Shown here in pieces: positions 1-16,313 of a stretch of DNA of 32,000 bases (position 1 is the first letter of the stretch; each line of letters opens with the position of its first letter). Made by a program: the position numbers and the translations under genes. The DNA lies in the NCBI GenBank assembly GCA_041659445.1, contig JBAZYG010000002.1, positions 180,001-212,000 of the forward strand, written 5' to 3'. The stretch is from Candidatus Saccharimonadota bacterium (GTDB taxonomy: Archaea; Nanobdellota; Nanobdellia; Pacearchaeales; GW2011-AR1). The notes under the pieces were generated by a model, which did no database searches, was not told the origin of the DNA, and worked only from the letters and a program-made list of their open reading frames with translations.

Positions 1-2010
1 AAAATTAAAGTTGAAAATGGAGCAAACTTTTCTAAATCTCCTGGATTTTTAGATTTAGATGCATTAAGTTATAGTTTTGAAATTGAAGGAAAAGAAATTC
101 AAGTTTCAGATGATCTGAAAATTATTGACGGAAAAGTTAAGGTAATACCCGAAGGATATCTTGTTGAACAGGGAAATGTGATTTCAAAAGGTAAAAGTAT
201 TTTTGTCGAATCCAAAAAGGACCAAGTTTTAATTTCTAATTTTAATTTAAAAGGATATAGTGGAAATTGGATTTATGAGTTTTCAGATAATTTAGAGATT
301 CATAGTTCTAACTTTGGTTCTGTTAAAATACAATTTTTAGAAGAAAATGGTTTGGTGAATGTTGAAAAAGAAGATTTGCTTTTAATTCAAGTTGAAAATG
401 GTGATTCTTTGAAAATCATAAAACAAGATGATTTAAATGCAATTCCAAAATTTGAGCATATATCTTCTGAAAAGGGTAAAACTAAAATTACTAATGGAAA
501 TATTGGAACCTTTGTTTACTCAAAAGAGGATTTAATACTTGAGAGGAATTCTTTGAATTTTGGAGATAGAAATTCTAAAAATAATGAAGTGGAGATGATT
601 ATTCAATCAGATTCAGAAAATCTTGATTTTGACTTAAATATAAATTCAAACGGGGAAGCCTTTATACAAAAGGGAAATGTTATTCAAAAAATAAACGAAG
701 AGTTAAGTGAGAATTTAAAAAATTTGGAAAAAGAACGTAATGAAGGTTTTGTGGTGCAATTTGAGGAAGAATTTAATTACACTTATTATGAAAAGATGTC
801 TGGTTATCTTACAGAAGATGAATACTCTGAAATTTCCAATAAATTTGCTAATGAATTATCTAAATTTTCAGATGAAGATTTTAATTCAGAAAATTATCCA
901 AATATAGAATCTTTAAATAATTTTTTAGATTATTGTATGAAAAACAAAATTCCTAAAGACAAATCCTTGGATTTTATTTCAAGTTATATTGAAAGTTCTG
1001 ATGAAAATACTGTGCCCGTTTTTAATGCACTTCCTTCATCTATTGAATCTCTAAAAAGAACTGGATTATCTTCTAAGCAATCAATGCAATTAATTTCTAC
1101 AACCCTTGAAAAATCTTCTTCAGAAGAAGGTTTAGCTATTTTAGAATCGAATAATCTTTTAAGTCCAATAAATAGTTTAAATAAATTTTTTACTCCTGAG
1201 CAAAGTTATGAAATAACTAACTCTTGGATTGAAAAATGCGATAAAGATTGTAATATAAACTCTGTTTTCGACGATATTTCGTCTAATAAAGGATATCTTG
1301 ATTTGTCATCTCGTTTATCTGGTTTAAAAGAAATTTATGGACTTAATAATCAAGAATGTTTTGAACTTACTAAAGGGGCTATAGAAAGAACAGAACCCGG
1401 GGGTGATGTATTGGTTAATTTTGGTAGTTCTATGGAGATGTTAAATTCGTTTAAATTTATGGGAGATTCAAAGCAAGAAGCACTTGAGAATATTGAAATA
1501 ATTCATAGAATTACAGGTGAATCTTTTAATTTTGCAAATGACTTTCTTATATCTTTTAAATTTGGGGGTTATACTTCTGATGAAGCTATTTATGCAATTA
1601 ATTTGATTGATAATTATATTGGAAAGGATTCTGAATACATGAAGTATGCAAAAGAAAATCCAGATTCAATAAAAGGATTTATATCAAAAAAGAAAATAAA
1701 GTCTTATGAATCACCTTCTGAAAAAAAAGGAGAAGAATGGGATAATTCAGATATAGATTATTTCATTAATAGTATTGAACGAGAGTCATATATTCAATTG
1801 CAGTTTTTTATTGATGATTTTACAGAAGAAAAAGGCAAAGAGAAAACAATGAATTTTCTTAAAGAAGCATCAAATGTTCTTGAGAGTTATACTCCTGAGG
1901 AATTGTTTGATTTAAATGGATTTGAGAAAATTTTACTTGTAAGAGAAATTGCAAAAAAATCTGGATTAAACTCTTTTGAAACAATAAAATTAGTTAGTTT
2001 TTTTCAATAA
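1..2010 (+). CDS. C-terminal part of a large hypothetical protein (5' end lies outside the window)
   Basis: Frame 1 is open from base 1, with no stop before the GTG at 178 that the ORF track used as a start. Stop TAA at 2008-2010. The protein is Asn/Ser/Glu-rich with no catalytic motif recognised. The C-terminal half carries degenerate helical repeats. Confidence 0.6.
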   Translation, partial: KIKVENGANFSKSPGFLDLDALSYSFEIEGKEIQVSDDLKIIDGKVKVIPEGYLVEQGNVISKGKSIFVESKKDQVLISNFNLKGYSGNWIYEFSDNLEIHSSNFGSVKIQFLEENGLVNVEKEDLLLIQVENGDSLKIIKQDDLNAIPKFEHISSEKGKTKITNGNIGTFVYSKEDLILERNSLNFGDRNSKNNEVEMIIQSDSENLDFDLNINSNGEAFIQKGNVIQKINEELSENLKNLEKERNEGFVVQFEEEFNYTYYEKMSGYLTEDEYSEISNKFANELSKFSDEDFNSENYPNIESLNNFLDYCMKNKIPKDKSLDFISSYIESSDENTVPVFNALPSSIESLKRTGLSSKQSMQLISTTLEKSSSEEGLAILESNNLLSPINSLNKFFTPEQSYEITNSWIEKCDKDCNINSVFDDISSNKGYLDLSSRLSGLKEIYGLNNQECFELTKGAIERTEPGGDVLVNFGSSMEMLNSFKFMGDSKQEALENIEIIHRITGESFNFANDFLISFKFGGYTSDEAIYAINLIDNYIGKDSEYMKYAKENPDSIKGFISKKKIKSYESPSEKKGEEWDNSDIDYFINSIERESYIQLQFFIDDFTEEKGKEKTMNFLKEASNVLESYTPEELFDLNGFEKILLVREIAKKSGLNSFETIKLVSFFQ

Positions 2011-2056: not shown

Positions 2057-3598
2057 TTAGGATTTTTTTGAGATATCTTTATTTTTTGAATTTCCTAAAG
2101 TTTTTTTTATCATGTAAGTTACTGGATTTTTCATTTTAATTTCTTCAGAATTTATTGAAATTCCAAGTGCTTTATAATAATCTGTATTAAAATTAGGGGG
2201 CATGATAGGTTTTCTTCGATAACTCCAAACCAATTGTGCTTGAATGTATCCTTCTTTTAACGGAGTTTCATTTTTTTTATTCCATTCAAAAATTCTTTTT
2301 TCTAGTTCAGTTTTATCCATACCAATTGACCTAAAAAAATTAAGTAAAACAAATAATCCTCGTTTTTTCCCGTCTTTTAATCCATTTAAAATATATTTTA
2401 TAGACGGTGGAAAATTATCTTCTTTGATTTCTTTTAATTGAATCGGTTTGAAGTTCGCATATTTTCCAGAAACATTTTTCTCTTCTGAAGTTCCTTTAAT
2501 TTCTCTGCTTTTAACCCAGTCCAAAGTTTGCATTACTAATTCTTTTGCTTCTTCTTCCTTGCATTCTGGAATAAAGTCTCTTATTTTTATTTTCATTGGA
2601 TCTGCATCTTTTATTTCAAAATTCTTAAATTCTTCTTCAGTTAAAACAACACTTGCCAATGCAGTTTTTTCATGTAAAGAATAAGGTGTCCTGAAAAGAT
2701 GCCTTGGTGAAACTAAAATCAAATCTAAACCCATTATTTCAAATAAATCAGATTCTTCATATGAAAGAATAAATTTCTCAGGATTTTTAAGAGAATTAAT
2801 TTTACATTTTTTGCATTCATAAATTTCTTTTAAATCTTTTTCAACAGTTTGCCTATTACATTCAGGGCACTTGTGGTTTTTTCTTTCTTCTCCTTTGATA
2901 AATCTTTTTATTTCTCCACTTTTACAAAAAGGACAATACATTTCTACTTGAATATAAATGTCTGATATTCCATTACAATTTTGACATTTTATTCCTTTTT
3001 TTATTTCAACATTTTTAAATTCCTTTTCAAAATCTTCAGGGAGATTTTCACGAAAAATTCTTTCAGAATGTTCTCTAATATAATTTATTAAATTTCTTGG
3101 AAGTTCAGGAAATAATTCTTTTGTAGGAATGCCATTAATTGATTTTGGGAAAGCTTTCCATGGAACTAAAATGTGAAATCCTTTTGAACCTGAAAATTTT
3201 ATCCCAATATTTTTTAATCCATTTCTCTTTAGTGTTTCAACAATTGCCTCTGCAGCTTTTTTTGCATAATCAAACCATTTACAATCTACATCTATTAATA
3301 AGTCCCAGCCAATCCTTAATTCATTATAATCTTTTTCAGTCATTTCTGTTGAAATTTTTAAAGGATCTTCCCAAAGTTCTTCAGAACAATTGAACGAAGT
3401 TGTTCCTCTTTTTACTAATTCATAAATATCTCCTTGATATTGCAAAGCATCAGGTCTTTTTCCAAAACTTTCAAAATATCTTGGAACTACTTCTCGGTTT
3501 TTGCAAAACTCAAAAATTGCTTTTTGTATTTCAGGCCTTGAATAATAAAGTTGAATAATACTCTTTATTCTTTTCTTTTTTAAGCTCTCTTCTTCCAT
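2057..3598 (-). CDS. priS: DNA primase: PriS-type catalytic domain with a zinc-ribbon insertion and a fused C-terminal helical domain (PriL-CTD/PriCT-like)
   Basis: Archaeo-eukaryotic primase motifs are present: DLLIDVD (acidic DxD), SGSKGFHILVPW (SGxxGxH) and RTPYSLHEKT. Four CxxC pairs lie at aa 205-265. The C-terminal FPPSIKYILNGLKDGKKRGLFVLLNFFRSIG...EWNKK resembles the PPC..L..G..R..LF helical module of PriL-CTD/PriCT. Confidence 0.8.
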   Translation of the reverse strand: MEEESLKKKRIKSIIQLYYSRPEIQKAIFEFCKNREVVPRYFESFGKRPDALQYQGDIYELVKRGTTSFNCSEELWEDPLKISTEMTEKDYNELRIGWDLLIDVDCKWFDYAKKAAEAIVETLKRNGLKNIGIKFSGSKGFHILVPWKAFPKSINGIPTKELFPELPRNLINYIREHSERIFRENLPEDFEKEFKNVEIKKGIKCQNCNGISDIYIQVEMYCPFCKSGEIKRFIKGEERKNHKCPECNRQTVEKDLKEIYECKKCKINSLKNPEKFILSYEESDLFEIMGLDLILVSPRHLFRTPYSLHEKTALASVVLTEEEFKNFEIKDADPMKIKIRDFIPECKEEEAKELVMQTLDWVKSREIKGTSEEKNVSGKYANFKPIQLKEIKEDNFPPSIKYILNGLKDGKKRGLFVLLNFFRSIGMDKTELEKRIFEWNKKNETPLKEGYIQAQLVWSYRRKPIMPPNFNTDYYKALGISINSEEIKMKNPVTYMIKKTLGNSKNKDISKKS

Positions 3599-4465: not shown

Positions 4466-4473
4466 TTTATAAA
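4466..4473 (+). promoter_or_regulatory. TATA box (TTTATAAA), 29 nt upstream of the ATG at 4495
   Basis: Exact octamer at the fixed -29 spacing shared with at least 8 other genes. The downstream ATTTCTTTTAGAATTT-ATGAAG is near-identical to the region before 10565. Confidence 0.6.
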
Positions 4474-4494: not shown

Positions 4495-5256
4495 ATGAAG
4501 AAAAGAGGGCAGGTTACAATCTTTGTTATTATTGCAATTGTAATAATTGTTTTAGGGGTTTTGGCTTTTTTTCTTTATCCAAAATTAAAAATTTCAACAG
4601 GATTTAATACTGAAAACCCAGAATTATTTTTGCAAAATTGTGTTGAAAATGATTTAGAAAATTTAATTGAAACTCTTTCTTTGCAAGGTGGAGAATTCAA
4701 TCCTCAAGGATATACTATTTATCAAGATGTTAAAATAAAATATATTTGTTATACTTCTGATTATTTTACTTTAGGTTTAAAACAAGTTCCATTCATTAAG
4801 AGATTTGTCGAGGATGAAATTAGTGTTCAGATAAAACCGAAAGTCGATGAATGCTTTGATGATTTAGTTTTAAAATATCAACAAAAAGGTTATGAAGTTA
4901 GTTCTAAAAAAGGAAATATTCAAACAGAAATTCTTCCTGAGCAAACTTCAATTGATTTAATTGGTTATAATTTAACAGTTTCTAGAGGAGAAAACGAAAA
5001 CAGATTTAATTTGTTTGTTATAAATTTGGACAATAATCTTTATGAACTTCTAAATATTGCTGAACATATAGTTAGTTGGGAAAATGAATTTGGAGACGCA
5101 GATACACTTTCGATCATGATGTTAAAAAAAGACATTCGAGTGAATAAAATATTAAGAGATGATGGTTCAAAAATTTATATAATTGAAAATAAAAAAACAA
5201 AAGAGGCATTTCAATTTGCTTCAAGAAGTTTGGTTTTCCCTGCAGGATTGTTTTAA
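4495..5256 (+). CDS. Exported hypothetical protein with a class III (type IV pilin-like) signal peptide
   Basis: N-terminus MKKRG|QVTIFVIIAIVIIVLGVLAFFLY: a basic n-region, then Gly-Gln, then an uninterrupted hydrophobic stretch of about 22 residues. It is the first gene after a TTTATAAA box at -29. Confidence 0.65.
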   Translation: MKKRGQVTIFVIIAIVIIVLGVLAFFLYPKLKISTGFNTENPELFLQNCVENDLENLIETLSLQGGEFNPQGYTIYQDVKIKYICYTSDYFTLGLKQVPFIKRFVEDEISVQIKPKVDECFDDLVLKYQQKGYEVSSKKGNIQTEILPEQTSIDLIGYNLTVSRGENENRFNLFVINLDNNLYELLNIAEHIVSWENEFGDADTLSIMMLKKDIRVNKILRDDGSKIYIIENKKTKEAFQFASRSLVFPAGLF

Positions 5257-5257
5257 A

Positions 5258-7402
5258 ATGAAAAAAAATTCAAGCAAAAAAATATTTTTTAGTATCTTTT
5301 TATTATTTGGAATAATTGTTTTTTCTTATTCTGTTCTTGCAGCAAGTGGTTGTTGTGAAAAAACAAAAGACGGTTTTTGGTGTCAAATGGTCGACGATAT
5401 TAGTTCAAAATGTGACAGTTCAAATGGGTTAACAAGTTCTCCAACATCATGTGATCAAACTGCTTATTGTTCTTTAGGAACTTGTATTAATTCTGTTACA
5501 GGAGAATGTGTTCCAAATCTTCCAAAATCAGAATGCGAAAGTGATTCTGCAGGAGAATGGGATTCAAGAACTTTACAAGAAATTCCAACTTGTCAATTGG
5601 GATGTTGTTCTTATGGTCCATATACTCAATTTGTTACACAAACAAAATGCAAACAATTAGGAACAGATTATGGTGTTGACCCTATTTTTAACGACGAGAT
5701 TACAGATGAACTTGAATGTTATAATTCAGATACTTCTTACAAAGAAGGAGCTTGTATATTCGAGAACGGAGATTGTCGACGAACTTCAAAAACAGAGTGT
5801 GATTCTCAATCAGGAAATTTTGAAGAAGGATTTTTATGCACTGCAACAAATTTAGAAACTCAATGTGCAAGAAGTTCAGAAACAATTTGTGATGAAAACG
5901 GAAGAGTTTATTTTAAAGATTCGTGTGGAAATTTAGCAAATATTTACAATGAAGAAATGTTTAGTACAAATCCAAATGCTTGGAATTCTGAAATGAAAGA
6001 TTATTGGACTTATATAAAAGAAATAGATGATTCTTCAATTTGTTCTTTTACTGGAACTACTTCTTCAACTTGCGGAAATTGTGATTTTTTATCAGGAAGT
6101 GTTTGTTCAAAATATAGATTAAACGATCCTACAATGCCTAATTCAAAACCAGAGTTTGGAAATTATGTTTGTGCAAGTATGGATTGTGCTTATGATACTG
6201 ATAGAAATGGTGAAAGAGAAATTTATCATCACGGAGAATCTTGGTGTGCAATGACAGAAGGAACTTACTGGGACCAAAATGCATATGAAGAATTTGGATT
6301 AGGTGGAATTAGAATAAATAAAACAACAGGTGATTATGTTGAAGCTAAAATTTTAAAAGAACTTGAAAATCAATCTAATTATAATCTTCCAGGAAGTCAA
6401 TATGTTTTATTAAAATGTATCGACGGAGAAGTTCTTCAAGAATCATGTATGTCTTACAGAAATTCTTTTTGCGTCGATGTTGTTTCTCATGAATCTGAAT
6501 TTAGAGAAGCACATTGTATTGGAAATGATTGGAGAGCTTGTCTTTCAAAAACAACTAAAAAAACTTGTGAAGGCGATTCTATTTATGGAACTCAAATGTG
6601 TAAATGGGTTGGAGGTTTTAGACTCGACGGAAAATCAACAACAACAAAAGAATCAAACAGGCAAAATATTGACCAAGGTTCTTGTGTTCCTTTATTATCT
6701 CCTGGATTAGAATTTTGGACAGATAAAAATAACGCAGAATGTTCTTTAGGAAATATTCAAGGTTCTGTAACTTATGCAACTTCATGGACAGTTAAAAGAG
6801 ACCATTTTGCAGAATTTGGAACAAAGTCTGCTTCTGAAACTTGTATGAATGATTGTTATCTTATTCCAGGTTATGCAAGTGATTTAGCTGGAAGTGATTT
6901 ACAAGACCAAAAAGCAATGGAAAATATTTATACAGGAGGAGATGTTCCAAGTGGAGATTTAAAAGATTATATGGTTTCACTTAGAAAAGCTTATTATTGT
7001 GAGGGAAAAACAGGAAAAGCATCTGGACCATCAGTTAGTTGTTCTGGTGAACCTGATAAAAGAAATAATTTTCCAGTTTATTGGACACATCAAGAATTTT
7101 ATGATTCAATTACAGAAAGAGCTCGTTCATTAGGAGATTGTGGTTACAAAGCAGGAGCTTATATTTCATTAAGTGAAATGAACGAGAGTAATGTTGAATT
7201 AGAATTAATGACTGTAGTATTTCAAAAAATATCTCAAGAAGGAGATGTAAAAGATGAAGATAAAGGAAATCTTGCTGAAAAAATTTATATTAATAACGAA
7301 TATGTTGGTGACCAATGCGGTTATAGAAGTGGAGAATACGACGAGGAATTATGCCAATTAGAAAACATTCCATTAGAAGAATCAACTGACGGAGAAGAAT
7401 AA
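5258..7402 (+). CDS. Large secreted cysteine-rich protein (about 714 aa)
   Basis: Start moved to the ATG at 5258 (MKKNSSKKIFFSIFLLFGIIVFSYSVLAASG..., a classical signal peptide), 1 nt after the upstream stop at a TAAAATG junction. I count about 44 Cys. No TM segment follows the signal peptide. The C-terminus is acidic. Confidence 0.7.
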   Translation: MKKNSSKKIFFSIFLLFGIIVFSYSVLAASGCCEKTKDGFWCQMVDDISSKCDSSNGLTSSPTSCDQTAYCSLGTCINSVTGECVPNLPKSECESDSAGEWDSRTLQEIPTCQLGCCSYGPYTQFVTQTKCKQLGTDYGVDPIFNDEITDELECYNSDTSYKEGACIFENGDCRRTSKTECDSQSGNFEEGFLCTATNLETQCARSSETICDENGRVYFKDSCGNLANIYNEEMFSTNPNAWNSEMKDYWTYIKEIDDSSICSFTGTTSSTCGNCDFLSGSVCSKYRLNDPTMPNSKPEFGNYVCASMDCAYDTDRNGEREIYHHGESWCAMTEGTYWDQNAYEEFGLGGIRINKTTGDYVEAKILKELENQSNYNLPGSQYVLLKCIDGEVLQESCMSYRNSFCVDVVSHESEFREAHCIGNDWRACLSKTTKKTCEGDSIYGTQMCKWVGGFRLDGKSTTTKESNRQNIDQGSCVPLLSPGLEFWTDKNNAECSLGNIQGSVTYATSWTVKRDHFAEFGTKSASETCMNDCYLIPGYASDLAGSDLQDQKAMENIYTGGDVPSGDLKDYMVSLRKAYYCEGKTGKASGPSVSCSGEPDKRNNFPVYWTHQEFYDSITERARSLGDCGYKAGAYISLSEMNESNVELELMTVVFQKISQEGDVKDEDKGNLAEKIYINNEYVGDQCGYRSGEYDEELCQLENIPLEESTDGEE

Positions 7403-7408
7403 ATAAAA

Positions 7409-9925
7409 ATGAATAAAATAATAAAAACAAAAAATTCAAAACAAAAAACATTTTCATTAATAGAATCTCTGATTTTGATAATTGCAATTTTTGCATTTGC
7501 CTGGATGATTGGCTCTGAATTTAAAACAGTAAGTGCTGCGACTTGTGTCCAAGGTCCAATAGGTAATGGTCTTCAAGAATGTTCTAATGAAGGAGACTTG
7601 GCCTGTGATAATAATCAAGATGTGGGGGCTATACTTGAATGTATTCAACCAACATCGGGTATAGCAGGAGTAGATCCTAATAAATTATATTGGAATGGTT
7701 ATGCCTTGTGTGATGATAATGAAATTTGTTCAAATTGCGAATGTGCTCCTATTGAAGAAGAAACTCCAGTTATTGATGAACCAGAAGTAGAAGTGCCTGA
7801 AGAAGAAAGCGGAGAATCTAATCCTAATGGATTAAAAAGTTGGGAAACTGCTCTTATTGGAGATATAACTGGAATAGTTCTAGAAAAAGGTAGCGAGTTA
7901 TTATTTAGTTCTGGAAGAGCAGGAACAACTGGAGGTGAAGCAGCAGCGCAAACAGGAACAGAAGTTGCAAGCGGAAGTAGTAGTGGTTTTTTAGATTCAT
8001 TTATAGGAGTTCTTGGAAAAGGGGGGGAATCTGTAGCAGGAAGTATTGGGGGAGCAATCGGCTCTTCATTAGGTGTTATTGCAATGGCTTGGGCAGCATA
8101 TAGTGGAATAGTTTATTTTTTAGATGCAATGGGCGTTGCTTGGGAAAATTATCATACTCTTGAACAAACTGCACTTTACACTACTATTGGAGTTTCAGCA
8201 TTGGGTGTTATTTACGGAGTTCTTCTTTATGTAGGTATTTTAGCAACAATTCCCGGAGCAGGTTGGATTGCAGCAGCAATAATTATTGTTGTAACTGCAA
8301 TTGTAGCAGCTTTTACATATCAAGATTTTTCACTTGAAACTTTTACTTATATTGTTCAACCATGGAAAGCTCCTTATGGAGGAGAAAGATGTGAAAAATG
8401 TAATAAATTAGATTATGGATGCAATGAATATCAATGTCATTCTTTTGGTGCTGCTTGTGGAATTGTAAACAAAGGAACACAAGATGAAAAATGTGCATGG
8501 TTAAATCCCGACGACCATTTATCTCCAGATATTACTTTAAATCAACAAGTTTTAGATGAACAAGATTTAAAATCAAAACCACTTGATATTACTCTTCCAA
8601 GTTCAGAAAAAGGTTTTGAAATATTACCTAAATCAGGAGAAGAATGCATCGCATCTTTTACAGAGGTAAAAATTGGTTTAATTACAAATGAATTAGCAGA
8701 ATGTAAATTTGATTTAAATCGTTCAAAAGAATATAACAATATGTTAAGCTACATGGAAGAAGGAAATTCATTAATTTATAATCACACATTAATCATACCT
8801 GCTGCAGGAGCACCAAGTACATCTGCTTTAGAAAATTTAGGAATTGAATTAGAAAACGGATTACCAAAGTATTTATTATATTTCAAATGTCGAGATATGA
8901 ATGAAAATACAAACAATGCGGATTTTATAATTCAATTTTGTATTGAAGAAGGTCCAGATACTCATGCACCTGTTATTAAAGGAACAAGTGTTACAAATCC
9001 AGCGTATATTTCTAATAATCAAACTTCTGCAGAAATAGAAGTTTACACAAATGAACCTGCAGATTGCAAATGGGATTTTGAAGATACAAGCTATGATAGA
9101 ATGACTTATAATATGACTGATTGTTCTTCACAACTTCAAGATTATTTAGTAGGATATAATTATGGATGCAAAGTAAATTTAACAGGAATTAAAAAAGAGC
9201 AACAAAATAAATATTATTTTAGATGTAAAGACCAACCTTGGTTAAGCACAGATGAAGAACATTTAAGAAATCCAAGTGGACAATCTTATGTTCAAATTTT
9301 AACTGGAACATCAAGCTTATTAATTGATTCTTTAAAAGTAAATGATAAAGACAAAGGTTCAATAATAAAAGATTCAACATCACCAGTTCAAGTTAGATTA
9401 GTTGCAAAAACTTCAAATGGTGCAGAAGAAGGAAAAGCAAAATGTAAATATTCTTTTGATGGTTTTGAAGATTGGTTTACAAATGGCGGACAATTCTGGC
9501 AAGGAACAGATGGATTCAGAGTTGAAAATTATCAAGATTTATTTTTAGATGCAGGAAATTATAATATTTCAGTAACGTGTTTTGATATTGGTGGAAATGT
9601 TGCATATGATTCTATTGAATTCAGTGTTGAACAAGATCTTCAAGCACCAATAATAACAAGAGCTTATTTTGAAGAAGGATATTTGAAATTAATTACAGAT
9701 GAAGAATCATCATGTGTTTACTCTTTGTTTAATGAAGGATGCAATTATTTATTTGTCGACGGAAATGAAATATCAACAACAGATGGAATTAATCACCTTG
9801 TTGAATGGAGCACAGAAGCAGAAATGTACATAAAATGTAAAGATGAATATGGAAATCTTCCAGAATCTGGACAATGTTCAATTCAAATTTTAAACTCTGA
9901 AAATTTTGAAGAAGAAAGTAATTAA
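7409..9925 (+). CDS. 838-aa multidomain surface/membrane protein: pilin-like N-terminus, Cys-rich module, acidic linker, Gly-rich multi-TM block and four Ig-like repeats
   Basis: The N-terminus KQKT|FSLIESLILIIAIFAFAWMIG resembles the prepilin FTLIE motif. A Cys-rich module spans aa 46-112, an acidic linker aa 115-135, and Gly/Ala/Ser-rich hydrophobic helices aa ~215-305. Four ~100-aa repeats each contain xCK[FWY]... and ...[FIT]xC[KRF]D. Confidence 0.7.
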   Translation: MNKIIKTKNSKQKTFSLIESLILIIAIFAFAWMIGSEFKTVSAATCVQGPIGNGLQECSNEGDLACDNNQDVGAILECIQPTSGIAGVDPNKLYWNGYALCDDNEICSNCECAPIEEETPVIDEPEVEVPEEESGESNPNGLKSWETALIGDITGIVLEKGSELLFSSGRAGTTGGEAAAQTGTEVASGSSSGFLDSFIGVLGKGGESVAGSIGGAIGSSLGVIAMAWAAYSGIVYFLDAMGVAWENYHTLEQTALYTTIGVSALGVIYGVLLYVGILATIPGAGWIAAAIIIVVTAIVAAFTYQDFSLETFTYIVQPWKAPYGGERCEKCNKLDYGCNEYQCHSFGAACGIVNKGTQDEKCAWLNPDDHLSPDITLNQQVLDEQDLKSKPLDITLPSSEKGFEILPKSGEECIASFTEVKIGLITNELAECKFDLNRSKEYNNMLSYMEEGNSLIYNHTLIIPAAGAPSTSALENLGIELENGLPKYLLYFKCRDMNENTNNADFIIQFCIEEGPDTHAPVIKGTSVTNPAYISNNQTSAEIEVYTNEPADCKWDFEDTSYDRMTYNMTDCSSQLQDYLVGYNYGCKVNLTGIKKEQQNKYYFRCKDQPWLSTDEEHLRNPSGQSYVQILTGTSSLLIDSLKVNDKDKGSIIKDSTSPVQVRLVAKTSNGAEEGKAKCKYSFDGFEDWFTNGGQFWQGTDGFRVENYQDLFLDAGNYNISVTCFDIGGNVAYDSIEFSVEQDLQAPIITRAYFEEGYLKLITDEESSCVYSLFNEGCNYLFVDGNEISTTDGINHLVEWSTEAEMYIKCKDEYGNLPESGQCSIQILNSENFEEESN
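8621..9898 (+). repeat. Four tandem ~100-aa protein-level repeats in the C-terminal half of the 838-aa protein
   Basis: Each unit carries a paired-Cys pattern: AECKFD...YFKCRD, ADCKWD...YFRCKD, AKCKYS...SVTCFD, SSCVYS...YIKCKD. Confidence 0.6.
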
Positions 9926-9944
9926 ATATTTAAGAAAAATGAAA

Positions 9945-9950
9945 GGAGGT
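9945..9950 (+). promoter_or_regulatory. Shine-Dalgarno GGAGGT, 9 nt upstream of the internal operon gene at 9960
   Basis: Read directly. Operon-internal genes would need an SD or coupling, whereas first genes look leaderless. Confidence 0.55.
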
Positions 9951-9959
9951 AAAAAATAA

Positions 9960-10493
9960 ATGGTTAAAAAAAATAATTCTTGGTTATTATGGGTTGTTTT
10001 AATCGTCGCTGTTGTTGCAATAATTTTAAGTGCAATTGCAATTTCTAAATCTAATAATATAACAGGAAATAGTATTTTTGATTTTTTTAAAAAATCCTCA
10101 ATTTCAACAAATACTCAAACTCAATCTAAAGGTTTGTTAGCTGATGCGTATTTAGCTTCAGGAAAAAGTTCTGAATCTTTGAAAAATTATGAAGCAGTTT
10201 ATGATGAAAACGGAGAATTAATTTATGAATTGCTTGATGATGCAACTTATTTTAATATTGGAAATACGTATGAACTAATTGAAGATAATAATGGTGTTTT
10301 TCTTAAGTCAAAAATTACAGGATTAATGGTTCCAGGACCAGATCCCGCAGATTGTAAACCAAGATGTACTACAAATGATATATGTACACCCAATGGGCTT
10401 TATTGTAATACTCCTATAACATGTAAAGAAACACAAAAAAAGAATCATTGTCGTTGGCCTAGTAAATTAGGGGGAGAAAGTTCAATAGATTAA
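9960..10493 (+). CDS. Membrane-anchored or secreted small protein with a Cys-rich C-terminus
   Basis: N-terminal hydrophobic helix MVKKNNSWLLWVVLIVAVVAIILSAIAI. C-terminal six-Cys segment CKPRCTTNDICTPNGLYCNTPITCKETQKKNHC. A GGAGGT Shine-Dalgarno lies 9 nt upstream. A T-rich terminator follows. Confidence 0.65.
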   Translation: MVKKNNSWLLWVVLIVAVVAIILSAIAISKSNNITGNSIFDFFKKSSISTNTQTQSKGLLADAYLASGKSSESLKNYEAVYDENGELIYELLDDATYFNIGNTYELIEDNNGVFLKSKITGLMVPGPDPADCKPRCTTNDICTPNGLYCNTPITCKETQKKNHCRWPSKLGGESSID

Positions 10494-10528
10494 TTTCTTT
10501 TTTTATTCTTTTTCTTTTTTTATTTTTT
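10494..10528 (+). terminator. Oligo-T termination tract inside the pilin-like locus
   Basis: TTTCTTTTTTTATTCTTTTTCTTTTTTTATTTTTT lies immediately after the stop at 10493. Archaeal RNAP terminates at T-runs. Confidence 0.5.
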
Positions 10529-10535
10529 CCTAAGA

Positions 10536-10543
10536 TTTATAAG
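10536..10543 (+). promoter_or_regulatory. TATA box (TTTATAAG), 29 nt upstream of the ATG at 10565
   Basis: Same spacing as at 4466, and 24 of 32 positions identical to that region. It is preceded by an oligo-T terminator. Confidence 0.55.
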
Positions 10544-10564
10544 TTCTAATTTCTTTTAAAATTC

Positions 10565-11041
10565 ATGAAGAATAAAAGAGGTTATTTAGAAATTTCTTTT
10601 GGAATGATTTTTACAATTATTTTAATTATTGCATTTATTGCATTTGCATTTTATGCAATTCAAAAATTCATTTTTTTTCAAAAAGATTCTCAATATAGAT
10701 TATTCCTAGAAGATTTTAAATCAGACGTGGATAAAATGTGGAAAACAACTTCAGGTTCACAAGAAGTTAGTTATAGATTACCAAGCTCAATAAAACAAGT
10801 TTGTATTACTCGTAGTTGTTCTGATTTAGGTTTTGAATATAATTGTTATTCACCAGATGATAATTTAGTTTTCAATAGTTCTAAAAATAATTTTGAAAGC
10901 ACTTATATTTCAAATTTAGATATTGAAAAGATTTTAGGAAGTAAAAAAGTTTATTGCTTTGATGTAATTGATAATCAAGTTTCAATGACTTTGATTAAAG
11001 AATATAATTCTGATAAAGTTTTGGTTTTAAAAATAAAATGA
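10565..11041 (+). CDS. Exported hypothetical protein with a class III (pilin-like) signal peptide
   Basis: N-terminus MKNKRG|YLEISFGMIFTIILIIAFIAFAFYAI. It shares K[RK]GYLEISF with the next gene. A TTTATAAG box lies at -29. Confidence 0.65.
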   Translation: MKNKRGYLEISFGMIFTIILIIAFIAFAFYAIQKFIFFQKDSQYRLFLEDFKSDVDKMWKTTSGSQEVSYRLPSSIKQVCITRSCSDLGFEYNCYSPDDNLVFNSSKNNFESTYISNLDIEKILGSKKVYCFDVIDNQVSMTLIKEYNSDKVLVLKIK

Positions 11042-12000
11042 AAATAAAATCTTTGAAAAAAAACAAGAAAGGTTATTTGGAAATTTCTTTTTCCTGGATT
11101 TTTGCTTTTATCGTCGGAGCATTTATTTTATTTCTAGCTATTTTTGCAGTAACAAAATTAATCAAAACAGAATCAACAAGTTCAGATGTTGAAACTTCAA
11201 GACAAATCGAAGTTTTATTAAGTCCTCTTGAAACTTCTTTTGAAGAAGGAAAATTAACAACCCTTTCAACATCAGTTGATTCAAGAATTTTTTCAACATG
11301 TTCAGCGTCAGGAGATTTTGGTAAGCAAACTATTTCTGTAAATCAAAAAGTTTATGGAAAATGGTCAGACACAAATACTGAAATAGAATTTGAAAATAAG
11401 TATTTGTTTTTAGATAAAAATAATGAAGGGAAAATATTTTATTTATTTTCAAAACCTTTTGATTTTGATTTCAAAGTAGCAAGTTTAATTTATTTAATTC
11501 CTTTAGAGAAAAAATATTGTTTTAAAGGAGATATCCCTGAAGAGATTTCAGAAGAATTAGAGCAAATAAATCCTCCTAATGTTTTTGTCGAGGATTCAGA
11601 TAATGATTGTTCTGGAAATGAAATCCAAGTTTGCTTTGGAAATCCTGATGAAAGTTGTGAAATTTCTGTTGATGTTTTTGAATATGCTGTTATAAAAGAA
11701 AATAAAAGAGTTTATTATGAAAACAATAATGCATTATTGTATTCTGCAATTTTTTCAAGTCCTGAATTTTATGAATGTCAAGTTAAGAGAATTATGTTAA
11801 GAGCAAATTCATTAGCAAGCTTATATAAAGATAAATTGTTTTTACCTTCTTTAATAAATTGCAATCCTGAATTAGTATCTGAATTGTCTTATTTTCAAAA
11901 TGTGTTAAGTAATTATGAAGATTCAAATGATTTAGCTTCTGTTTTTTCAAGTGCAGAAGAACTTCAATATAAGAATAATGCGAGGTGTGAAGCATGGTAA
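11038..12000 (+). CDS. Exported hypothetical protein with a class III (pilin-like) signal peptide; N-terminal paralogue of the previous gene
   Basis: N-terminus MKIKSLKKNKKG|YLEISFSWIFAFIVGAFILFLAIFAV. ATGA start/stop overlap with the upstream gene. The ectodomain contains about 9 Cys. Confidence 0.65.
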   Translation: MKIKSLKKNKKGYLEISFSWIFAFIVGAFILFLAIFAVTKLIKTESTSSDVETSRQIEVLLSPLETSFEEGKLTTLSTSVDSRIFSTCSASGDFGKQTISVNQKVYGKWSDTNTEIEFENKYLFLDKNNEGKIFYLFSKPFDFDFKVASLIYLIPLEKKYCFKGDIPEEISEELEQINPPNVFVEDSDNDCSGNEIQVCFGNPDESCEISVDVFEYAVIKENKRVYYENNNALLYSAIFSSPEFYECQVKRIMLRANSLASLYKDKLFLPSLINCNPELVSELSYFQNVLSNYEDSNDLASVFSSAEELQYKNNARCEAW

Positions 12001-12587
12001 AAAAAATTTCAAATTCACGAAAAGCTCAAAACATAAAATCAAAGATTTTGTTAGTTTCGTTTTTTCCGTCGAAAAAAGCTCAAATGAAAATTCAACAAAC
12101 AGCGATAATATTACTAGCAATAACTTTATTATTTGTGTTGGTTGCTTTATTTTTTCTTTCTTTCAAAATTCAAAATTTAAAAAAAGATGCAAATCTAGCA
12201 TCTGAAAAAGATGCAATAATTTTGTCTTCTAAACTTTCTGAAAGCCCTGAATTTTCTTGTCAGCAAGCATTTGGAAACAAAAGAGTTAATTGCATTGATT
12301 CAGATAAATTAATGGCATTAATTGAAAATTCAGACAAATATTCGAATTTTTTCGGAGTTTCAAATATTGAAGTTATTAAAATTCAAGATAAAGAAGAGCT
12401 TTTAACAAAATGCACAGACGCAAATTATCCTAATTGCAATCATTTTTCAGTTTTTGATTCAAACAATTCAGGTTTTAGTTACACTAGTTTTGTTTCGTTG
12501 TGTAGAAAAGTAAACTATCAAGATATTTATTTTTATGACAAATGTGAATTATCTAAATTAATAATAAGTTATGAAAAAATAAGTTAA
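11994..12587 (+). CDS. Exported hypothetical protein with a class III-like signal (KKAQ|MKIQQTAIILLAITLLFVLVALFF)
   Basis: ATGGTAA overlap with the upstream stop. The hydrophobic helix follows KKAQ. A degenerate earlier copy (RKAQNIKSKILLVSFF) precedes it, so the start could instead be the internal ATG. The ectodomain contains 6 Cys. Confidence 0.55.
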   Translation: MVKKISNSRKAQNIKSKILLVSFFPSKKAQMKIQQTAIILLAITLLFVLVALFFLSFKIQNLKKDANLASEKDAIILSSKLSESPEFSCQQAFGNKRVNCIDSDKLMALIENSDKYSNFFGVSNIEVIKIQDKEELLTKCTDANYPNCNHFSVFDSNNSGFSYTSFVSLCRKVNYQDIYFYDKCELSKLIISYEKIS

Positions 12588-12594
12588 AATTTTA

Positions 12595-12682
12595 AAAAAC
12601 AACAAAATGAAAAATAAAAAACTCAAATTAAAATTTGGTAAGTTTCATTTTTCATAAAAACAACAAAATGAAAAACAAAAAA
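12595..12682 (+). repeat. 27-nt direct repeat (one mismatch, 61-nt offset) duplicating the start-codon region of the gene at 12668
   Basis: AAAAACAACAAAATGAAAAA[T/C]AAAAAA occurs at 12595-12621 and 12656-12682. The first copy opens a 16-codon ORF (MKNKKLKLKFGKFHFS*). Confidence 0.6.
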
Positions 12683-13174
12683 GCACAAGAAGAAATGATT
12701 GGATTTGCTTTAATCTTAGTTATAATCGGAGTTATAATTTTGGTTTTTTTCACAATCTCTATTAAAAATAAAACAACTGTTGAAGAAAGTTATGTGACAG
12801 ACAATTTTATTCAAGCTTTGTTACAACATTCAACAGACTGTGCAGAAAACTATGAAACAGATTATTTAGATTTTAGAAGATTGATAAATAAATGTGCAAA
12901 TAGTGGAACAGGAAAATGTTTTCAATCAAGTTGGACATATTGTGAATCTTTAGAAAAAAATTTGAACAGTACTTTAAAGAATTCATGGCAAATTAGTTCA
13001 GATAGTTATTACAAAGCCTATGTTTTGAAAATAAATAATAAAGGAAATGAATTATTAACTATATATGATAGTGCGAATAAAACTGAATTAACTGATGTAA
13101 AAAGTCAATTTAATTCTAAAGGTTCTGTTCAAAATTTAGGGGAAATTGATATTTATTTAGATGTTTATTATTAA
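12668..13174 (+). CDS. Exported hypothetical protein with a class III (pilin-like) signal peptide
   Basis: Start set at the ATG at 12668 (MKNKKA|QEEMIGFALILVIIGVIILVFF) rather than the non-ATG start at 12635 in the track. The ectodomain contains 4 Cys. Confidence 0.6.
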   Translation: MKNKKAQEEMIGFALILVIIGVIILVFFTISIKNKTTVEESYVTDNFIQALLQHSTDCAENYETDYLDFRRLINKCANSGTGKCFQSSWTYCESLEKNLNSTLKNSWQISSDSYYKAYVLKINNKGNELLTIYDSANKTELTDVKSQFNSKGSVQNLGEIDIYLDVYY

Positions 13175-13524
13175 ATTTTAAAACTTATATTTAAAGTATC
13201 CACTGCTAATTCTGGTCTGTGTCTTATTCTTTTTTTTGTTTTTTCTTGTACAAAATCAACAAAACCAAATCTTTCAAGTAATTTAACATCATCAAAAACA
13301 GATTTAAATGGCCTGTTAAGAAGTTTGGCTAATTCATAAATTGATTTTGGTTTTTTGTTTTTTATTACATCTAAAATCCTTGCTTTTTCATTGTTTAAAA
13401 CTTGTCTTAGGGCAGAAATTCCTTCAAAATTATAATCTTTTTTTGAAAATTTTTGTTTGTAAAACACAGAAAAAGTTCCTTTATTTTCTTTTATTTCTAT
13501 TTCACGTGTTTTTGATTTTGACAT
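13171..13524 (-). CDS. Small winged helix-turn-helix transcriptional regulator (family not resolved)
   Basis: 117 aa. The segment SIYELAKLLNRPFKSVFDDVKLLERFGFVDFVQEK looks like an HTH recognition helix plus wing. It is divergent from the S-layer-like gene. Its stop overlaps the convergent upstream stop (TTAA at 13171-13174). Confidence 0.6.
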   Translation of the reverse strand: MSKSKTREIEIKENKGTFSVFYKQKFSKKDYNFEGISALRQVLNNEKARILDVIKNKKPKSIYELAKLLNRPFKSVFDDVKLLERFGFVDFVQEKTKKRIRHRPELAVDTLNISFKI

Positions 13525-13660
13525 TTTTAATGATTTAATTGAATTATTTTCCGTCTATAGTATATATATGTTATTTTTTAATATATATATTTTTTGTTTT
13601 TTGTTGAGAGAGCCTAAAACTCGCTTTAATATGTATTAATAACATAATGGTTACATAAGC

Positions 13661-13668
13661 TTTATAAA
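13661..13668 (+). promoter_or_regulatory. Candidate TATA box for the S-layer-like gene, which would give a 5' leader of about 220 nt
   Basis: This is the only consensus TTTATAAA in the 389-nt intergenic region oriented toward 13914. The AGGAGGT at 13891-13897 requires a transcribed leader. Confidence 0.4.
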
Positions 13669-13673
13669 TAAAA

Positions 13674-13697
13674 CCTAGAATTATAGCTTGTTCTAGG
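13674..13697. promoter_or_regulatory. Perfect palindrome CCTAGAA-N10-TTCTAGG, 5 nt downstream of the candidate TATA box (candidate operator)
   Basis: 7-bp perfect inverted arms read directly. Its position over the predicted transcription start is the classic location of archaeal repressor sites. A divergent wHTH gene is adjacent. Confidence 0.45.
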
Positions 13698-13725
13698 TCA
13701 CAACCGAAAACTTATAGAACAAGCT
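13685..13725 (+). other. Perfect 11-bp stem-loop (AGCTTGTTCTA / TAGAACAAGCT, 19-nt loop), mutually exclusive with the 13674-13697 hairpin
   Basis: Arms at 13685-13695 and 13715-13725 are exact reverse complements. The 5' arm overlaps the 3' arm of the palindrome. Confidence 0.5.
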
Positions 13726-13890
13726 TTTTAAAGGAAATTGAGTTTTTTACATTACGTCAAAGGTCTTATAGGGGATTAATAAGCATTTGAGGGACACGAA
13801 TGCAATATCTTCTATGAGATTGCTAAATAGCCCCCTATCTATTTAGGTGACGCATACGTTACCATTGGTAACTCGCGATATACAATTGAA

Positions 13891-13897
13891 AGGAGGT
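13891..13897 (+). promoter_or_regulatory. Shine-Dalgarno-like AGGAGGT, 16 nt upstream of the S-layer-like gene ATG
   Basis: Read directly. The spacing is longer than usual. Confidence 0.4.
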
Positions 13898-13913
13898 TTT
13901 AAAAAAAATAAAA

Positions 13914-16313
13914 ATGAAAAACGTTTTTAAGAAGATTGTTGCTATTAGTGCTAGTGTATTAATGACTGGCTTCACTGCAGGTATTGCAGCAGCAGCAAGT
14001 TTTCCAGCTCCATTCGTTCAAAGCGGTGTAGCTGACGTAGCTATTGTTTATGGTACAGGTACTGGTGTTTCTTCAGTTGATTTTACTCACGCTGGAAACA
14101 TCCAAACAACTTTGGGTGAATCTATGCCAAGTACAGGAGGAACTCCTGTAGGTGGTGAATCATATAAATTTGAAAAAACATCTACTAAATTCCATTTAGG
14201 TGATAACTTCACAACACTTAGAGAAACATTAACAGATGATCATTTACCTGTTCTATTAGGAGATGGTATCTATGTTGATGATGATAATGATGAATTCGAT
14301 TATACTCAAAAAATCGAAATGAATGCATCAGTATTATCTATGTTCTCTGATAGTGATTATGATGACAGTGCACCTACAGTTGGATTTAGAATAGCTTCAG
14401 GATATAATGTCTTGAACTATACAGTTACTTTTGTTGACCAACCACTTATGTCTGATTTAGTTACTTCAACTTTACCTATAATGGGTAAAGAGTACTATGT
14501 TTTATCAAACAGTACAAGCGGAGCTAATAATATTTTAACATTATTAGATTCAGCTGATAGTGCTATTGTATCAGATGCAGAAGGAGATAGTATAACACTT
14601 ACTGCTGGTGGGAAAACTTATGTTGTTACTGTTCCTTATATAAGTTCAACAGAGGTGAAATTATCAATTAATGGAGAAACTACTAACACATTAAACGAAG
14701 CTGAAACTCAAAAATTATCTGATGGTTCATACGTTGGTATTAGAGATATCATGTATAACGCTCACGATACTGGAGTAAGCCAAGTAGAGTTTAGTATAGG
14801 ATCTGGTAAATTAAAAATTACAAGTGGTTCTGAAATCCAAATTAATGATAATATCATAAACGGTATTACTGCTGTAATAACAAATAGTAGTGCAGCTGCA
14901 ACAACACTTACAAGTATTGAACTTGAGTGGAAGACTGATGATGATACATTCATCACAGAAGGTAGTGAAATTACAATGCCAGGATTTGGAATTGTAAAAC
15001 TATCTTACACTGGACTTACTTTCCCTACAGAAGAGGAATTCACTGTTGAGCAAGGTTCAGATACCTACATAATGCTTAACGACTTCCCAGTTAAAGATGG
15101 AACTATAGATATTCCATTATTATACGGAAGTGCAGGTGGTCCTTACTCTGGTTTAGGTAAAGATGCAACTAACAAATTAGTTACAAGCAATATTACTGGT
15201 TCATCTGTTCCTTTAAAATTCGATAAAGATACTGATGAAATGTTTGTTGTTACTTATGAAACTACAACAGAATGTGAGTCATATGTATTAAAGGCTACAT
15301 CATTCGGAGTAGATACTGCAAATAACAATCAAACAACTATTCAAAGGTGGAAAGACGGAGCATGGACAGATGAAAGAGATGTAAAAGCAACAGATACTTT
15401 CTCAATTGGTAGTGCAGAGTTAGGTGTTCAATATGTTGAAAGATCACCAGGTAATTTTGTAAATATTACTTCAAACAGTTCAAGTACTAAGTTTAACATA
15501 CTTTGTTCTGATAAAGGATTAAAGTTATGGTTGCCTTGGACATATACTGCTGGTTCTATTAACATGAGTTATAAAACAGGAGCAATTAACTTGACTGCAA
15601 TGGGAGATGCCTCTGAAAACTATTCTGCTGGTTTCAATGGTACTAATTGGTATCTTCAAATGCAAGAAGAAGATAAAGATGGAAATATTGCAGCTGGAGA
15701 TCAATGGAATATCTCATTAGGTTGGGATAGTTCAACTACTGCTGAACCACAAGTCTCTGACTTGAGAGGAGAAGATGTAACTGCTGTTAAACTTGACTCT
15801 GATAGTACTGACTATAGAAGCTTCATGTATTCTGCTCTCGCAACAGAATTCATATGGCATCAACCTAGTTCAGACCAAGATAGTATAGATATACTATATC
15901 ACGGAGATGAAGTTGCTGCAGATGTTTATATTACATCACCAGAAGCTACTACTACTGGAACAAGTTCATTAGGAAATGTTCTTGTAAAAGATAGCGAAGT
16001 TGCTAGCGTACAATCAAAGAACTTAATCGTTGTTGGTGGAAGTTGTATTAACTCAGTTGCTGCTAATTTAGTTGGTGGTAGCTATTGTGGTCCAAGTTTC
16101 ACAACTGCAACAGGTGTTGGAGCAGGACAATTCTTAATCCAAAGTTACGGCGATGCCTATACTACTGGAAAAGTTGCTCTATTAGTTGCTGGTTACAACG
16201 TTGATGATACTGCTAACGGTGCTACATACTTGAGAACAAAGACTGTAGATACAACTGCTGGTAAGAAGTACATTGGTACATCTTCAACAGAAGCTACACT
16301 TCAAGTTGCTTAA
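13914..16313 (+). CDS. S-layer-like major surface protein
   Basis: Signal peptide MKNVFKKIVAISASVLMTGFTAGIAAAA. The N-terminal FPAPFVQSGVADVAIVYGTG...VD..AGNI and C-terminal NLIVVGGSCINSVAANLV...GKVALLVAGYNVDDTANGATYL resemble the paired N/C modules of archaeal S-layer proteins. It is Thr/Ser/Gly-rich with many N-x-S/T sequons. Codon usage differs from neighbouring genes. A strong oligo-T tract lies downstream. Confidence 0.7.
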   Translation: MKNVFKKIVAISASVLMTGFTAGIAAAASFPAPFVQSGVADVAIVYGTGTGVSSVDFTHAGNIQTTLGESMPSTGGTPVGGESYKFEKTSTKFHLGDNFTTLRETLTDDHLPVLLGDGIYVDDDNDEFDYTQKIEMNASVLSMFSDSDYDDSAPTVGFRIASGYNVLNYTVTFVDQPLMSDLVTSTLPIMGKEYYVLSNSTSGANNILTLLDSADSAIVSDAEGDSITLTAGGKTYVVTVPYISSTEVKLSINGETTNTLNEAETQKLSDGSYVGIRDIMYNAHDTGVSQVEFSIGSGKLKITSGSEIQINDNIINGITAVITNSSAAATTLTSIELEWKTDDDTFITEGSEITMPGFGIVKLSYTGLTFPTEEEFTVEQGSDTYIMLNDFPVKDGTIDIPLLYGSAGGPYSGLGKDATNKLVTSNITGSSVPLKFDKDTDEMFVVTYETTTECESYVLKATSFGVDTANNNQTTIQRWKDGAWTDERDVKATDTFSIGSAELGVQYVERSPGNFVNITSNSSSTKFNILCSDKGLKLWLPWTYTAGSINMSYKTGAINLTAMGDASENYSAGFNGTNWYLQMQEEDKDGNIAAGDQWNISLGWDSSTTAEPQVSDLRGEDVTAVKLDSDSTDYRSFMYSALATEFIWHQPSSDQDSIDILYHGDEVAADVYITSPEATTTGTSSLGNVLVKDSEVASVQSKNLIVVGGSCINSVAANLVGGSYCGPSFTTATGVGAGQFLIQSYGDAYTTGKVALLVAGYNVDDTANGATYLRTKTVDTTAGKKYIGTSSTEATLQVA

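Follow-up and report, generated by a model that had tools for sequence, protein, structure and literature searches.

What kind of cell-surface system is encoded by a run of genes whose products all begin with a hydrophobic segment and have no sequence match in Pfam, NCBIfam or the PDB? The question is raised by positions 4495-13174 of a 32,000-nt stretch of DNA, referred to here as the window, of contig JBAZYG010000002.1 (positions 180,001-212,000, assembly GCA_041659445.1). The contig was deposited under the name Candidatus Saccharimonadota bacterium and is placed by GTDB among the archaea, in the Pacearchaeales; the organism is small and probably lives attached to a host. The window has a G+C content of about 27% and contains the archaeal core genes for a fused PriS/PriL primase, PCNA, FtsZ, L11, Spt5 and aIF5A. 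A first-pass annotation, made from the nucleotide sequence without database searches, had described the interval as nine genes for exported proteins, six of them with prepilin-like N-termini. Independent gene calls for the same contig agree on eight consecutive plus-strand genes instead of nine (g1 to g8, coding for 253, 714, 838, 177, 158, 320, 197 and 168 amino acids, respectively), and each product does start with a hydrophobic N-terminal segment. Our reading of the locus, to which we assign a probability of roughly 55 per cent, is that it represents a Pacearchaeota-wide core module of the cell surface, which combines a minor-pilin-like set with an adhesin complex and which would assemble on the cell and mediate adhesion.

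Conservation and organization of the gene block

More than 265 homologues of g6 (11038..12000, +) were found at 43-51% identity, all annotated as hypothetical, and the g6 product itself is identical to the hypothetical protein WC812_04665 of a Candidatus Pacearchaeota archaeon. In a scan of one genome per species, g6 relatives were present in 293 GTDB species. For the comparison of loci, open reading frames (ORFs) were called in 88 retrieved loci, which total about 1.3 Mb, and iterated profiles were used for every gene of the neighbourhood. The recurrent order was primase(-), PCNA, g1, g2, g3, g5, g6, g7, g8, regulator(-), S-layer gene, x1, x2 and, further downstream, pacearchaeosortase(-) and PACE-CTERM protein(-). 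Counting relative to g6 and only in loci with enough flanking sequence, g5 was found upstream in 71 of 78 loci, and g7 and g8 were found downstream in 69/70 and 67/70, respectively. Upstream of g6, g3 was present in 46/53 loci and the complete g1-g2-g3 set in 39/44. The linkage extends to the regulator downstream of g6 (57/59), to the nearby S-layer gene (44/46) and x1-x2 pair (36/37), and to the pacearchaeosortase gene downstream (36/37).

About 80 other species have the same genes in unchanged order, and a relative whose PCNA is 64% identical has retained g1, g2, g3, g5, g6 and g7 at 36-45% identity. This conservation of content, order and identity, which is far beyond chance, shows that these are real, selected genes in a core-genome position; together they form a strongly conserved, previously unannotated cell-surface module whose seven conserved protein families carry no database name. 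The first-pass annotation had proposed to look for synteny in relatives, and the block proved to be conserved as a unit, not scattered. Its base composition equals that of its flanks. Gene g4 (9960..10493, +; 177 amino acids with an N-terminal anchor and six Cys) lies outside the conserved set. It is lineage-specific, being restricted to the window and two loci of the same organism and absent from locus L003 and from all other species, and its product has no class III junction.

The genes are closely packed, with junctions that comprise a 1-nt gap, a 6-nt gap, overlaps of 4 and 7 nt and gaps of 34-80 nt. TATA-like boxes (TTTATAA), which are putative promoters, are located at 4466..4472 (+) and 10536..10542 (+), in both cases 22 nt before the ATG, of g1 and g5, respectively. 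Among the relatives that have the box, the 22-nt spacing was found in 33 of 36 for g1 and in 38 of 43 for g5, and such boxes are rare before g6, g7 and g8. This distribution indicates two leaderless transcription units, a putative operon A consisting of g1-g2-g3(-g4) and a putative operon B consisting of g5-g6-g7-g8.

In some relatives operon B is interrupted by insertions, between g5 and g6 in L034, L038, L039, L051, L052, L071 and L079, and between g7 and g8 in L007, L052, L058 and L063, with the gene order left intact. These small ORFs were considered as additional pilins and rejected; they encode cytoplasmic proteins, namely nucleotidyltransferase/HEPN toxin-antitoxin-like pairs and GNAT acetyltransferases. 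Another locus, L082 (JAHYJW010000002.1), is titled 'Patescibacteria group bacterium' and has the complete archaeal island; it is probably mis-binned or mislabelled.

N-termini of the small proteins

Archaeal prepilin and preflagellin peptidases recognize a basic residue at position -2 and a small residue at -1. N-termini of this type were found in five of the proteins (the arrow marks the predicted cleavage site): g1 (4495..5256, +; MKKRG↓QVTIF, predicted +1 codon at 4510), g5 (10565..11041, +; MKNKRG↓YLEISFGMIF), g6 (...KKG↓YLEISFSWIF), g7 (11994..12587, +; ...SKKA↓QMKIQQTA, behind a 29-residue leader) and g8 (12668..13174, +; MKNKKA↓QEEMIGF). For g8, the ATG at 12668 was preferred as start over a TTG at 12635, in agreement with the 168-codon gene call.

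Each family was aligned on its conserved core (about 45-80 species per family). Among the 45 members of the g1 family the residue at -1 is G in 38, A in 5 and S in 2, the residue at +1 is always Q, and the leaders are 5-32 amino acids long. The 67 members of the g5 family (consensus KxG↓QMKLSFGMIF) have G (49) or A (16) at -1 and Q (59) at +1, followed by S at +5 and F at +6 in 66 and G at +7 in all 67. The g6 family (n = 80) has G (56) or A (12) at -1 and Y, F or A at +1, whereas Q, E or D at +3, F at +6 and W at +8 are found in every member. In the g7 family (n = 77) A (39), G (35) or S (3) at -1 is followed by Q at +1 in all members, with K at +3 and QQ at +5/+6 in 76. The g8 family (n = 74) has A (39), G (28) or S (7) at -1, Q at +1 in all 74, E at +2 in 72 and E at +3 in 74. 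Thus, G, A or S occupies -1 in 96-100% of the g1, g5, g7 and g8 proteins and in 86% of the g6 proteins, and Q occupies +1 in 100% of g1, g7 and g8 and in 88% of g5. Positions -3 and -2 are K or R in most members of the five families.

The leaders in front of these junctions are 3-48 residues long across the five families, and they still vary between 4 and 38 residues where a TATA box, located 22 nt before the start codon, defines the latter independently. It follows that the leader is translated and variable, whereas the junction is fixed. Behind the junction there is a near-invariant hydrophobic helix with fixed polar residues between +2 and +6 (EE in g8, K..QQ in g7, Q, E or K at +3 and S at +5 in g5 and g6). 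Conservation within g6 is highest in the N-terminal helix, as exemplified by SFAWLFAIIVGAFILFLAI at about 45% overall identity. As controls we used other families of the same island, in which the [KR][GAS]Q junction was found in 1 of 44 (x1), 3 of 39 (x2), 0 of 45 (g2) and 0 of 55 (g3) members. The assignment of g1, g5, g6, g7 and g8 as proteins with class III (prepilin-type) N-termini, predicted to be cleaved at the junction, is therefore well supported by sequence comparison. The features required of a type IV filament (TFF) subunit, a basic leader, a small residue at -1 and a hydrophobic helix (10.64898/2026.04.22.720090), are present in the same five proteins at the sequence level.

The six N-terminal strings quoted in the first-pass annotation are all present where it had located them. 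The prepilin-like character holds across the families for five of them and fails for the sixth, that of g3 (7409). The g3 sequence KT↓FSLIE was considered as a bacterial-type pilin signal because of F at +1 and E at +5, and was rejected; it has T at -1 and is specific to this genome. The g3 family has a conserved N-terminal helix, but G or A at -1 is inconsistent and a Sec-type 'VSA' site follows.

The giant proteins g2 and g3

The two largest products, described correctly at the outset as a protein of about 714 amino acids with about 44 Cys and an 838-residue protein, differ in their relation to the membrane. The g2 protein (5258..7402, +) is predicted to be exported by way of an ordinary Sec signal peptide, with VLA as the likely end of the cleaved part. 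About 41 of its 44 Cys are near-invariant in the family, from which we infer a fold held together by about 20 disulfides. The g3 protein (7409..9925, +) is predicted to be membrane-embedded and contains 28 Cys. Its family comprises 2813 metagenome cluster representatives in an exhaustive HMMER search; word-indexed searches with g3 or with a 24-sequence profile had returned only two homologues, low-complexity words swamping the candidates.

AlphaFold2 models were made for g3 and g6. The g3 model (med96feccf6b8) has an N-terminal helix (residues 12-37), and its predicted local distance difference test score (pLDDT) is low for residues 38-193 and above 90 for residues 320-835. The poorly predicted part falls into a variable Cys-rich ectodomain (approximately 38-205), which is followed by hydrophobic helices (210-240, 245-272 and 284-303) and a Cys cluster (328-362). 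Residues 320-835 form successive beta-sandwiches, about five conserved immunoglobulin-like (Ig-like) domains. Foldseek matched this region to tandem Ig, cadherin and FN3 ectodomains and to bacterial giant adhesins (SiiE, an ice-binding adhesin and GhpA) with E-values down to 1e-12; the global TM-scores were low, as is to be expected of arrays of domains. Of the central helices (210-303), an even number probably cross the membrane, because both flanking parts carry conserved Cys or extracellular domains. Among 50 homologues Big_13 was detected in 15, in the conserved part. In the variable N-terminal ectodomain LysM was found in 3 of 50, and He_PIG or EF-hand also occurred (e.g. P0136, P0237 and P0249). 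LysM hints at peptidoglycan binding, and so at bacterial hosts, which had likewise been suggested from murein-lytic domains (PMC8204110).

Natural fusions between g2 and g3 were found in L006 (914-4852), L027 (74-3772), L047 (505-4362), L058 (79-4170) and L044 (2436-5801), the last one at the primary position. These proteins of 1121-1363 amino acids with 64-86 Cys join a g2-like Cys-rich domain to the membrane and Ig-like part of g3, which argues that g2 and g3 act together. Moreover, wherever the downstream flank of a g1-family gene is intact, a giant secreted protein is encoded directly 3' of it, mostly g2, an 823-residue protein (see below) or a g2-g3 fusion. Since g1-family genes always precede such a gene, g1 is the probable pilin-type partner or adaptor of the adjacent giant proteins.

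Ectodomains of the small proteins

The number of invariant Cys is even in each small family: four in g1, two in g5, eight in g6, six in g7 and four in g8 (the g1 copy of the window has three of the family's four). These counts fit disulfide-bonded extracellular domains, and thus agree with the disulfide-stabilized ectodomains postulated in the first-pass annotation. The ectodomains had also been called consistently Cys-rich. This applies to g2 and g3 (6.2 and 3.3% Cys), whereas the values of the small proteins spread from 1.2 to 3.6%, compared with 1.0% in the cytoplasmic proteins of the window.

The g6 model, based on a 50-sequence alignment, has a pLDDT of 89.8 and a predicted TM-score of 0.83. 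A helix (18-60) is followed by long strands forming a beta-sheet (74-164) and then by a region of mixed structure, and the C terminus forms a helical bundle. In hhalign comparisons g5 was related to g6 with a probability of 96% across 139-141 columns and with both invariant Cys in register, which identifies g5, at the profile level, as a paralogue of the N-terminal helix-plus-sheet half of g6. The links of g1 were weaker (76% to g8 and 55% to g5). The helix-then-sheet layout predicted for g6 and g5 resembles that of pilins, the fold anticipated at the outset; a Foldseek search with g6 gave no structural counterpart (see Discussion). Sequence and profile searches of the PDB with g1, g2, g3, g5, g6, g7 and g8 gave nothing significant. 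With a pooled profile of the N-termini (residues -4 to +44) the best PDB match was the type IV pilin MshA (9lab_B) with an E-value of 0.014 and a register off by five residues, a marginal match that lends weak support to the pilin interpretation.

Search for assembly genes

The statement that no assembly machinery is adjacent was confirmed and extended. No FlaI/PilB-family ATPase was detected by Pfam among the window proteins, and no platform protein of the FlaJ/TadC/PilC type was found in the locus. In the 88 loci there was no ORF with a T2SSE-type Walker A motif and no polytopic GxGD protein or A24-type peptidase (FlaK/PibD/EppA). The only polytopic proteins of the locus are g3 (3-4 helices, no T2SSF match), the pacearchaeosortase and a 130-residue four-helix protein. 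The last one (21098-21490, +) was considered as a miniature prepilin peptidase because of its GIGIGD motif. This was rejected, since conservation does not extend to the second Asp and the protein matches neither Pfam nor NCBIfam models. The longest g3 homologues (1685-1708 amino acids) were followed as a possible route to loci with machinery, and they were found at the same syntenic position without an ATPase. Of the features that define a TFF system, those of the subunit are thus the only ones found in the locus. In the sister group Woesearchaeota FlaI, FlaJ and FlaK are reported for most metagenome-assembled genomes (PMC11606122). In the literature, no statement on FlaI, FlaJ and FlaK and nothing specific on pili was found for Pacearchaeota, and a search of supplements for T2SSE and Peptidase_A24 was empty.

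Genes surrounding the block

Downstream, g8 converges with a gene for a winged-helix regulator of the HVO_A0114 family (13171..13524, -; PF25212, E = 4e-18). An S-layer-like protein follows (13914..16313, +; S_layer_C, PF05124, E = 2.5e-7), which has a signal peptide and no C-terminal anchor. For this genome, the 390-nt spacer between these two genes (13525-13913) is of unusually high G+C content and complexity. A search of Rfam with the spacer gave nothing at the gathering threshold; it could contain a long 5' untranslated region, binding sites of the regulator or a small RNA. Always 3' of the S-layer gene are x1 and x2 (16444-17040 and 17070-17723, both +), which encode paralogous N-terminally anchored proteins (hhalign 92.6%) with four invariant Cys each and without a class III junction.

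The pacearchaeosortase gene (17724-18269, -; NF033505, 224.6 bits compared with a cut-off of 80) and the gene of its presumed substrate, a PACE-CTERM putative S-layer protein (19354-20985, -; NF033506, 380 bits), complete the set together with the 130-residue protein mentioned above, which is the last member of the island in at least 23 loci. As both sortase and substrate are in the window and the sortase is kept in 36 of 37 relatives, the window contains an entire cell-envelope island. The PACE-CTERM signal (NF033506) was matched only by the protein at 19354-20985, and none of the g1-g8 products has a C-terminal anchor. The pacearchaeosortase system is a neighbour of g1-g8, not their home.

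On the other side, the fused primase is a single 513-residue protein (2057-3598, -) with the Pfam signals of both the small and the large subunit. At 178..2010 (+) the window contains the C-terminal 610 residues of an 823-residue secreted protein, the rest of which lies outside. This belongs to a second cassette 5' of the primase gene, consisting of a g1 paralogue (L001, 1425-2153; 242 amino acids, MKKKA↓QVTIF) and the 823-residue protein (L001, 2131-4602). In L023 and L077 the same pair is located directly before g1-g2. More surface proteins are encoded just 5' of the window on the opposite strand (L088, 14846-17804). One, of 615 residues, contains 30 Cys and has a proline-rich tail as well as a C-terminal anchor; the other is an anchored protein of 369 residues. 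The surface-protein region therefore reaches beyond the window.

Discussion

The first-pass annotation had regarded the locus as a module of unknown type. This was overstated, since its composition matches the general plan of archaeal type IV pili. As in the g1, g5, g7 and g8 families, Q is found at +1 in Methanococcus pilins. Archaeal type IV pilus loci have been described in which an adhesin and an Ig-rich S-layer-like protein are encoded along with five or more minor pilins and the components have conserved Cys; sets of pilin genes can be located apart from the ATPase/TadC pair that serves them (PMC4858521). The closest counterparts are minor-pilin sets such as those of the clade 1 (Epd) pili of Methanococcus maripaludis and of the 4E systems of the Thermoproteales, in which several small class III-type proteins are likewise encoded together with an adhesin-like and an Ig-rich S-layer-like protein. 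The locus differs from these in that its head regions have no detectable sequence or fold similarity to catalogued pilin families, in that it is fixed beside the main S-layer gene, and in that an ATPase, TadC or peptidase gene is absent within 10 kb in all 88 loci. The families are new to databases. They probably belong to the unannotated, mostly membrane-bound or extracellular Pacearchaeota-specific families ('Module 222') reported in PMC8204110, in which the gene cluster, the class III-type junctions, the two operons and the g2-g3 fusions are not described.

A resemblance by organization also exists to the bacterial FimU-PilVWX/PilY1 and GspH-I-J-K sets, in which four to five distinct single-copy pilin-like proteins are encoded in one operon with a large non-pilin adhesin. 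By analogy, the fibre mechanism proposed below is similar to that of type IV pilus minor-pilin sets and type II secretion pseudopili. No homology to these sets was detected, the junction is [KR][GAS]↓Q instead of G↓F...E5, and the genes belong to an S-layer-bearing archaeon. The bacterial type IV pilin pattern requires G at -1, F or M at +1 and E at +5, and E at +5 was found in none of the five families.

Several results weigh against the interpretation as a minor-pilin-like set with an adhesin complex. None of 125 members of the g1 and g5-g8 families matched a pilin model of Pfam or NCBIfam. The commonest NCBIfam near-match was the minor pilin ComGD, in 6 of the 125 members with a best E-value of 0.008, far below the cut-off. 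Class_IIIsignal (PF04021, DUF361, motif QxSxExxxL) was matched by none of them even at E-values up to 1. Of the five N-termini, only that of g1 (RGQVTI) fits the FlaFind-type pattern, which we take to be [KRDE][GA][ALIFQMVED][ILMVTAS]x3; assuming this form, g5, g6, g7 and g8 depart from it at +1, +2 or +3 (Y, K or E). A Foldseek search of the PDB with the g6 model matched neither pilins nor other proteins (best E-value 0.15). The pilin-like genes are single-copy each, the locus offers no candidate for a major pilin, and secretion ATPase, platform and peptidase genes were not found in the window, in its flanks (about 7 kb upstream and 7.6 kb downstream) or in the 88 loci.

The strongest competing explanation holds that the five proteins are uncleaved N-terminal anchors, which together with g3 form a fixed membrane-to-S-layer complex (pillars, anchors or biogenesis factors) involving neither a filament nor type IV machinery, the conserved helices reflecting packing inside the membrane. 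The tight linkage of the block to the S-layer gene, the regulator and x1-x2, and to pacearchaeosortase together with its substrate (36/37), would be natural for such a complex; the S-layer protein itself is without a membrane anchor, the 88 loci yielded no ATPase, platform or peptidase, none of the single-copy pilin-like genes resembles a major pilin gene, and the several conserved membrane helices of g3 could partner the anchors. On the other hand, a plain anchor needs no invariant [KR][GAS]↓Q junction behind a very variable leader, the junction is missing from the anchored proteins of the same island, and the predicted layout of g6 and g5 resembles the one known from pilins. On balance we consider this explanation possible, and clearly less probable than the one involving pilin-like subunits.

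Two further explanations are much less likely. The pilin-type N-termini might tether substrate-binding or nutrient-scavenging proteins, as they do in the case of the sugar-binding proteins of the Sulfolobales bindosome, which resembles the locus in having such N-termini on proteins that do not necessarily form long filaments. Class III-type signals on archaeal proteins outside filaments are known (10.64898/2026.04.22.720090), and Pacearchaeota with their minimal metabolism must scavenge (PMC7906910, PMC8204110). This is nevertheless improbable, because neither the locus nor the conserved island yielded an ABC transporter or a solute-binding-protein domain, the predicted g6 fold has no counterpart among binding proteins, and the partners are giant Cys-rich and Ig-rich proteins, not transporters. 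That the genes have no function in common and are an assortment of unrelated genes for secreted proteins, or were inserted by a mobile element or a virus, could be suspected from the lack of annotation of every protein and from the toxin-antitoxin-like and acetyltransferase insertions in some relatives. We regard this as very improbable; it is contradicted by the synteny, in which order and content are kept across species whose PCNA may be only about 64% identical, by the base composition, by the fixed position between PCNA and the S-layer gene and by the g2-g3 fusions.

For a minor-pilin-like set with an adhesin complex, the steps from leader cleavage through polymerization to adhesion can be envisaged as follows. 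A class III signal peptidase encoded elsewhere would remove the leaders of g1 and g5-g8. The N-terminal helices of g5-g8 and g1 would then bundle into a short heteromeric fibre or into a tip or base complex, to which g1 would couple the g2/g3 adhesin complex. In this complex g3 would present its variable outer domain, sometimes bearing LysM, on a stalk of about five Ig-like domains. The assembly may span or decorate the S-layer and mediate attachment to a surface or to a host cell. A bolder variant, which we consider speculative and rather doubtful, is that Pacearchaeota possess a pilin-based surface organelle that has no type IV ATPase and platform dedicated to it. In this organelle a heteromeric stalk of five pilin-like proteins, nucleated by the g3 helices and integrated in the S-layer, would present the g2/g3 adhesin to a possibly bacterial host recognized through LysM. 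If true, such an organelle would add a new class to the envelope structures of archaea, one by which the lineage is defined.

Pacearchaeota are uncultivated archaea that occur in abundance and have a minimal metabolism, and among the DPANN lineages they are the most enriched in the host-attached size fraction of groundwater, where they are retained with larger cells (PMC7906910). The gene cluster described here, present in at least 293 species-level genomes at a fixed core-genome place beside the S-layer gene, is a concrete candidate for an attachment apparatus, for which the analysis provides predicted cleavage sites, two putative promoters and a natural fusion between g2 and g3. The variable outer domain of g3, with LysM in some members, could report the type of host. 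If the genomes turn out to be without a type IV ATPase, these proteins would be pilin-like subunits that work outside the canonical machinery.

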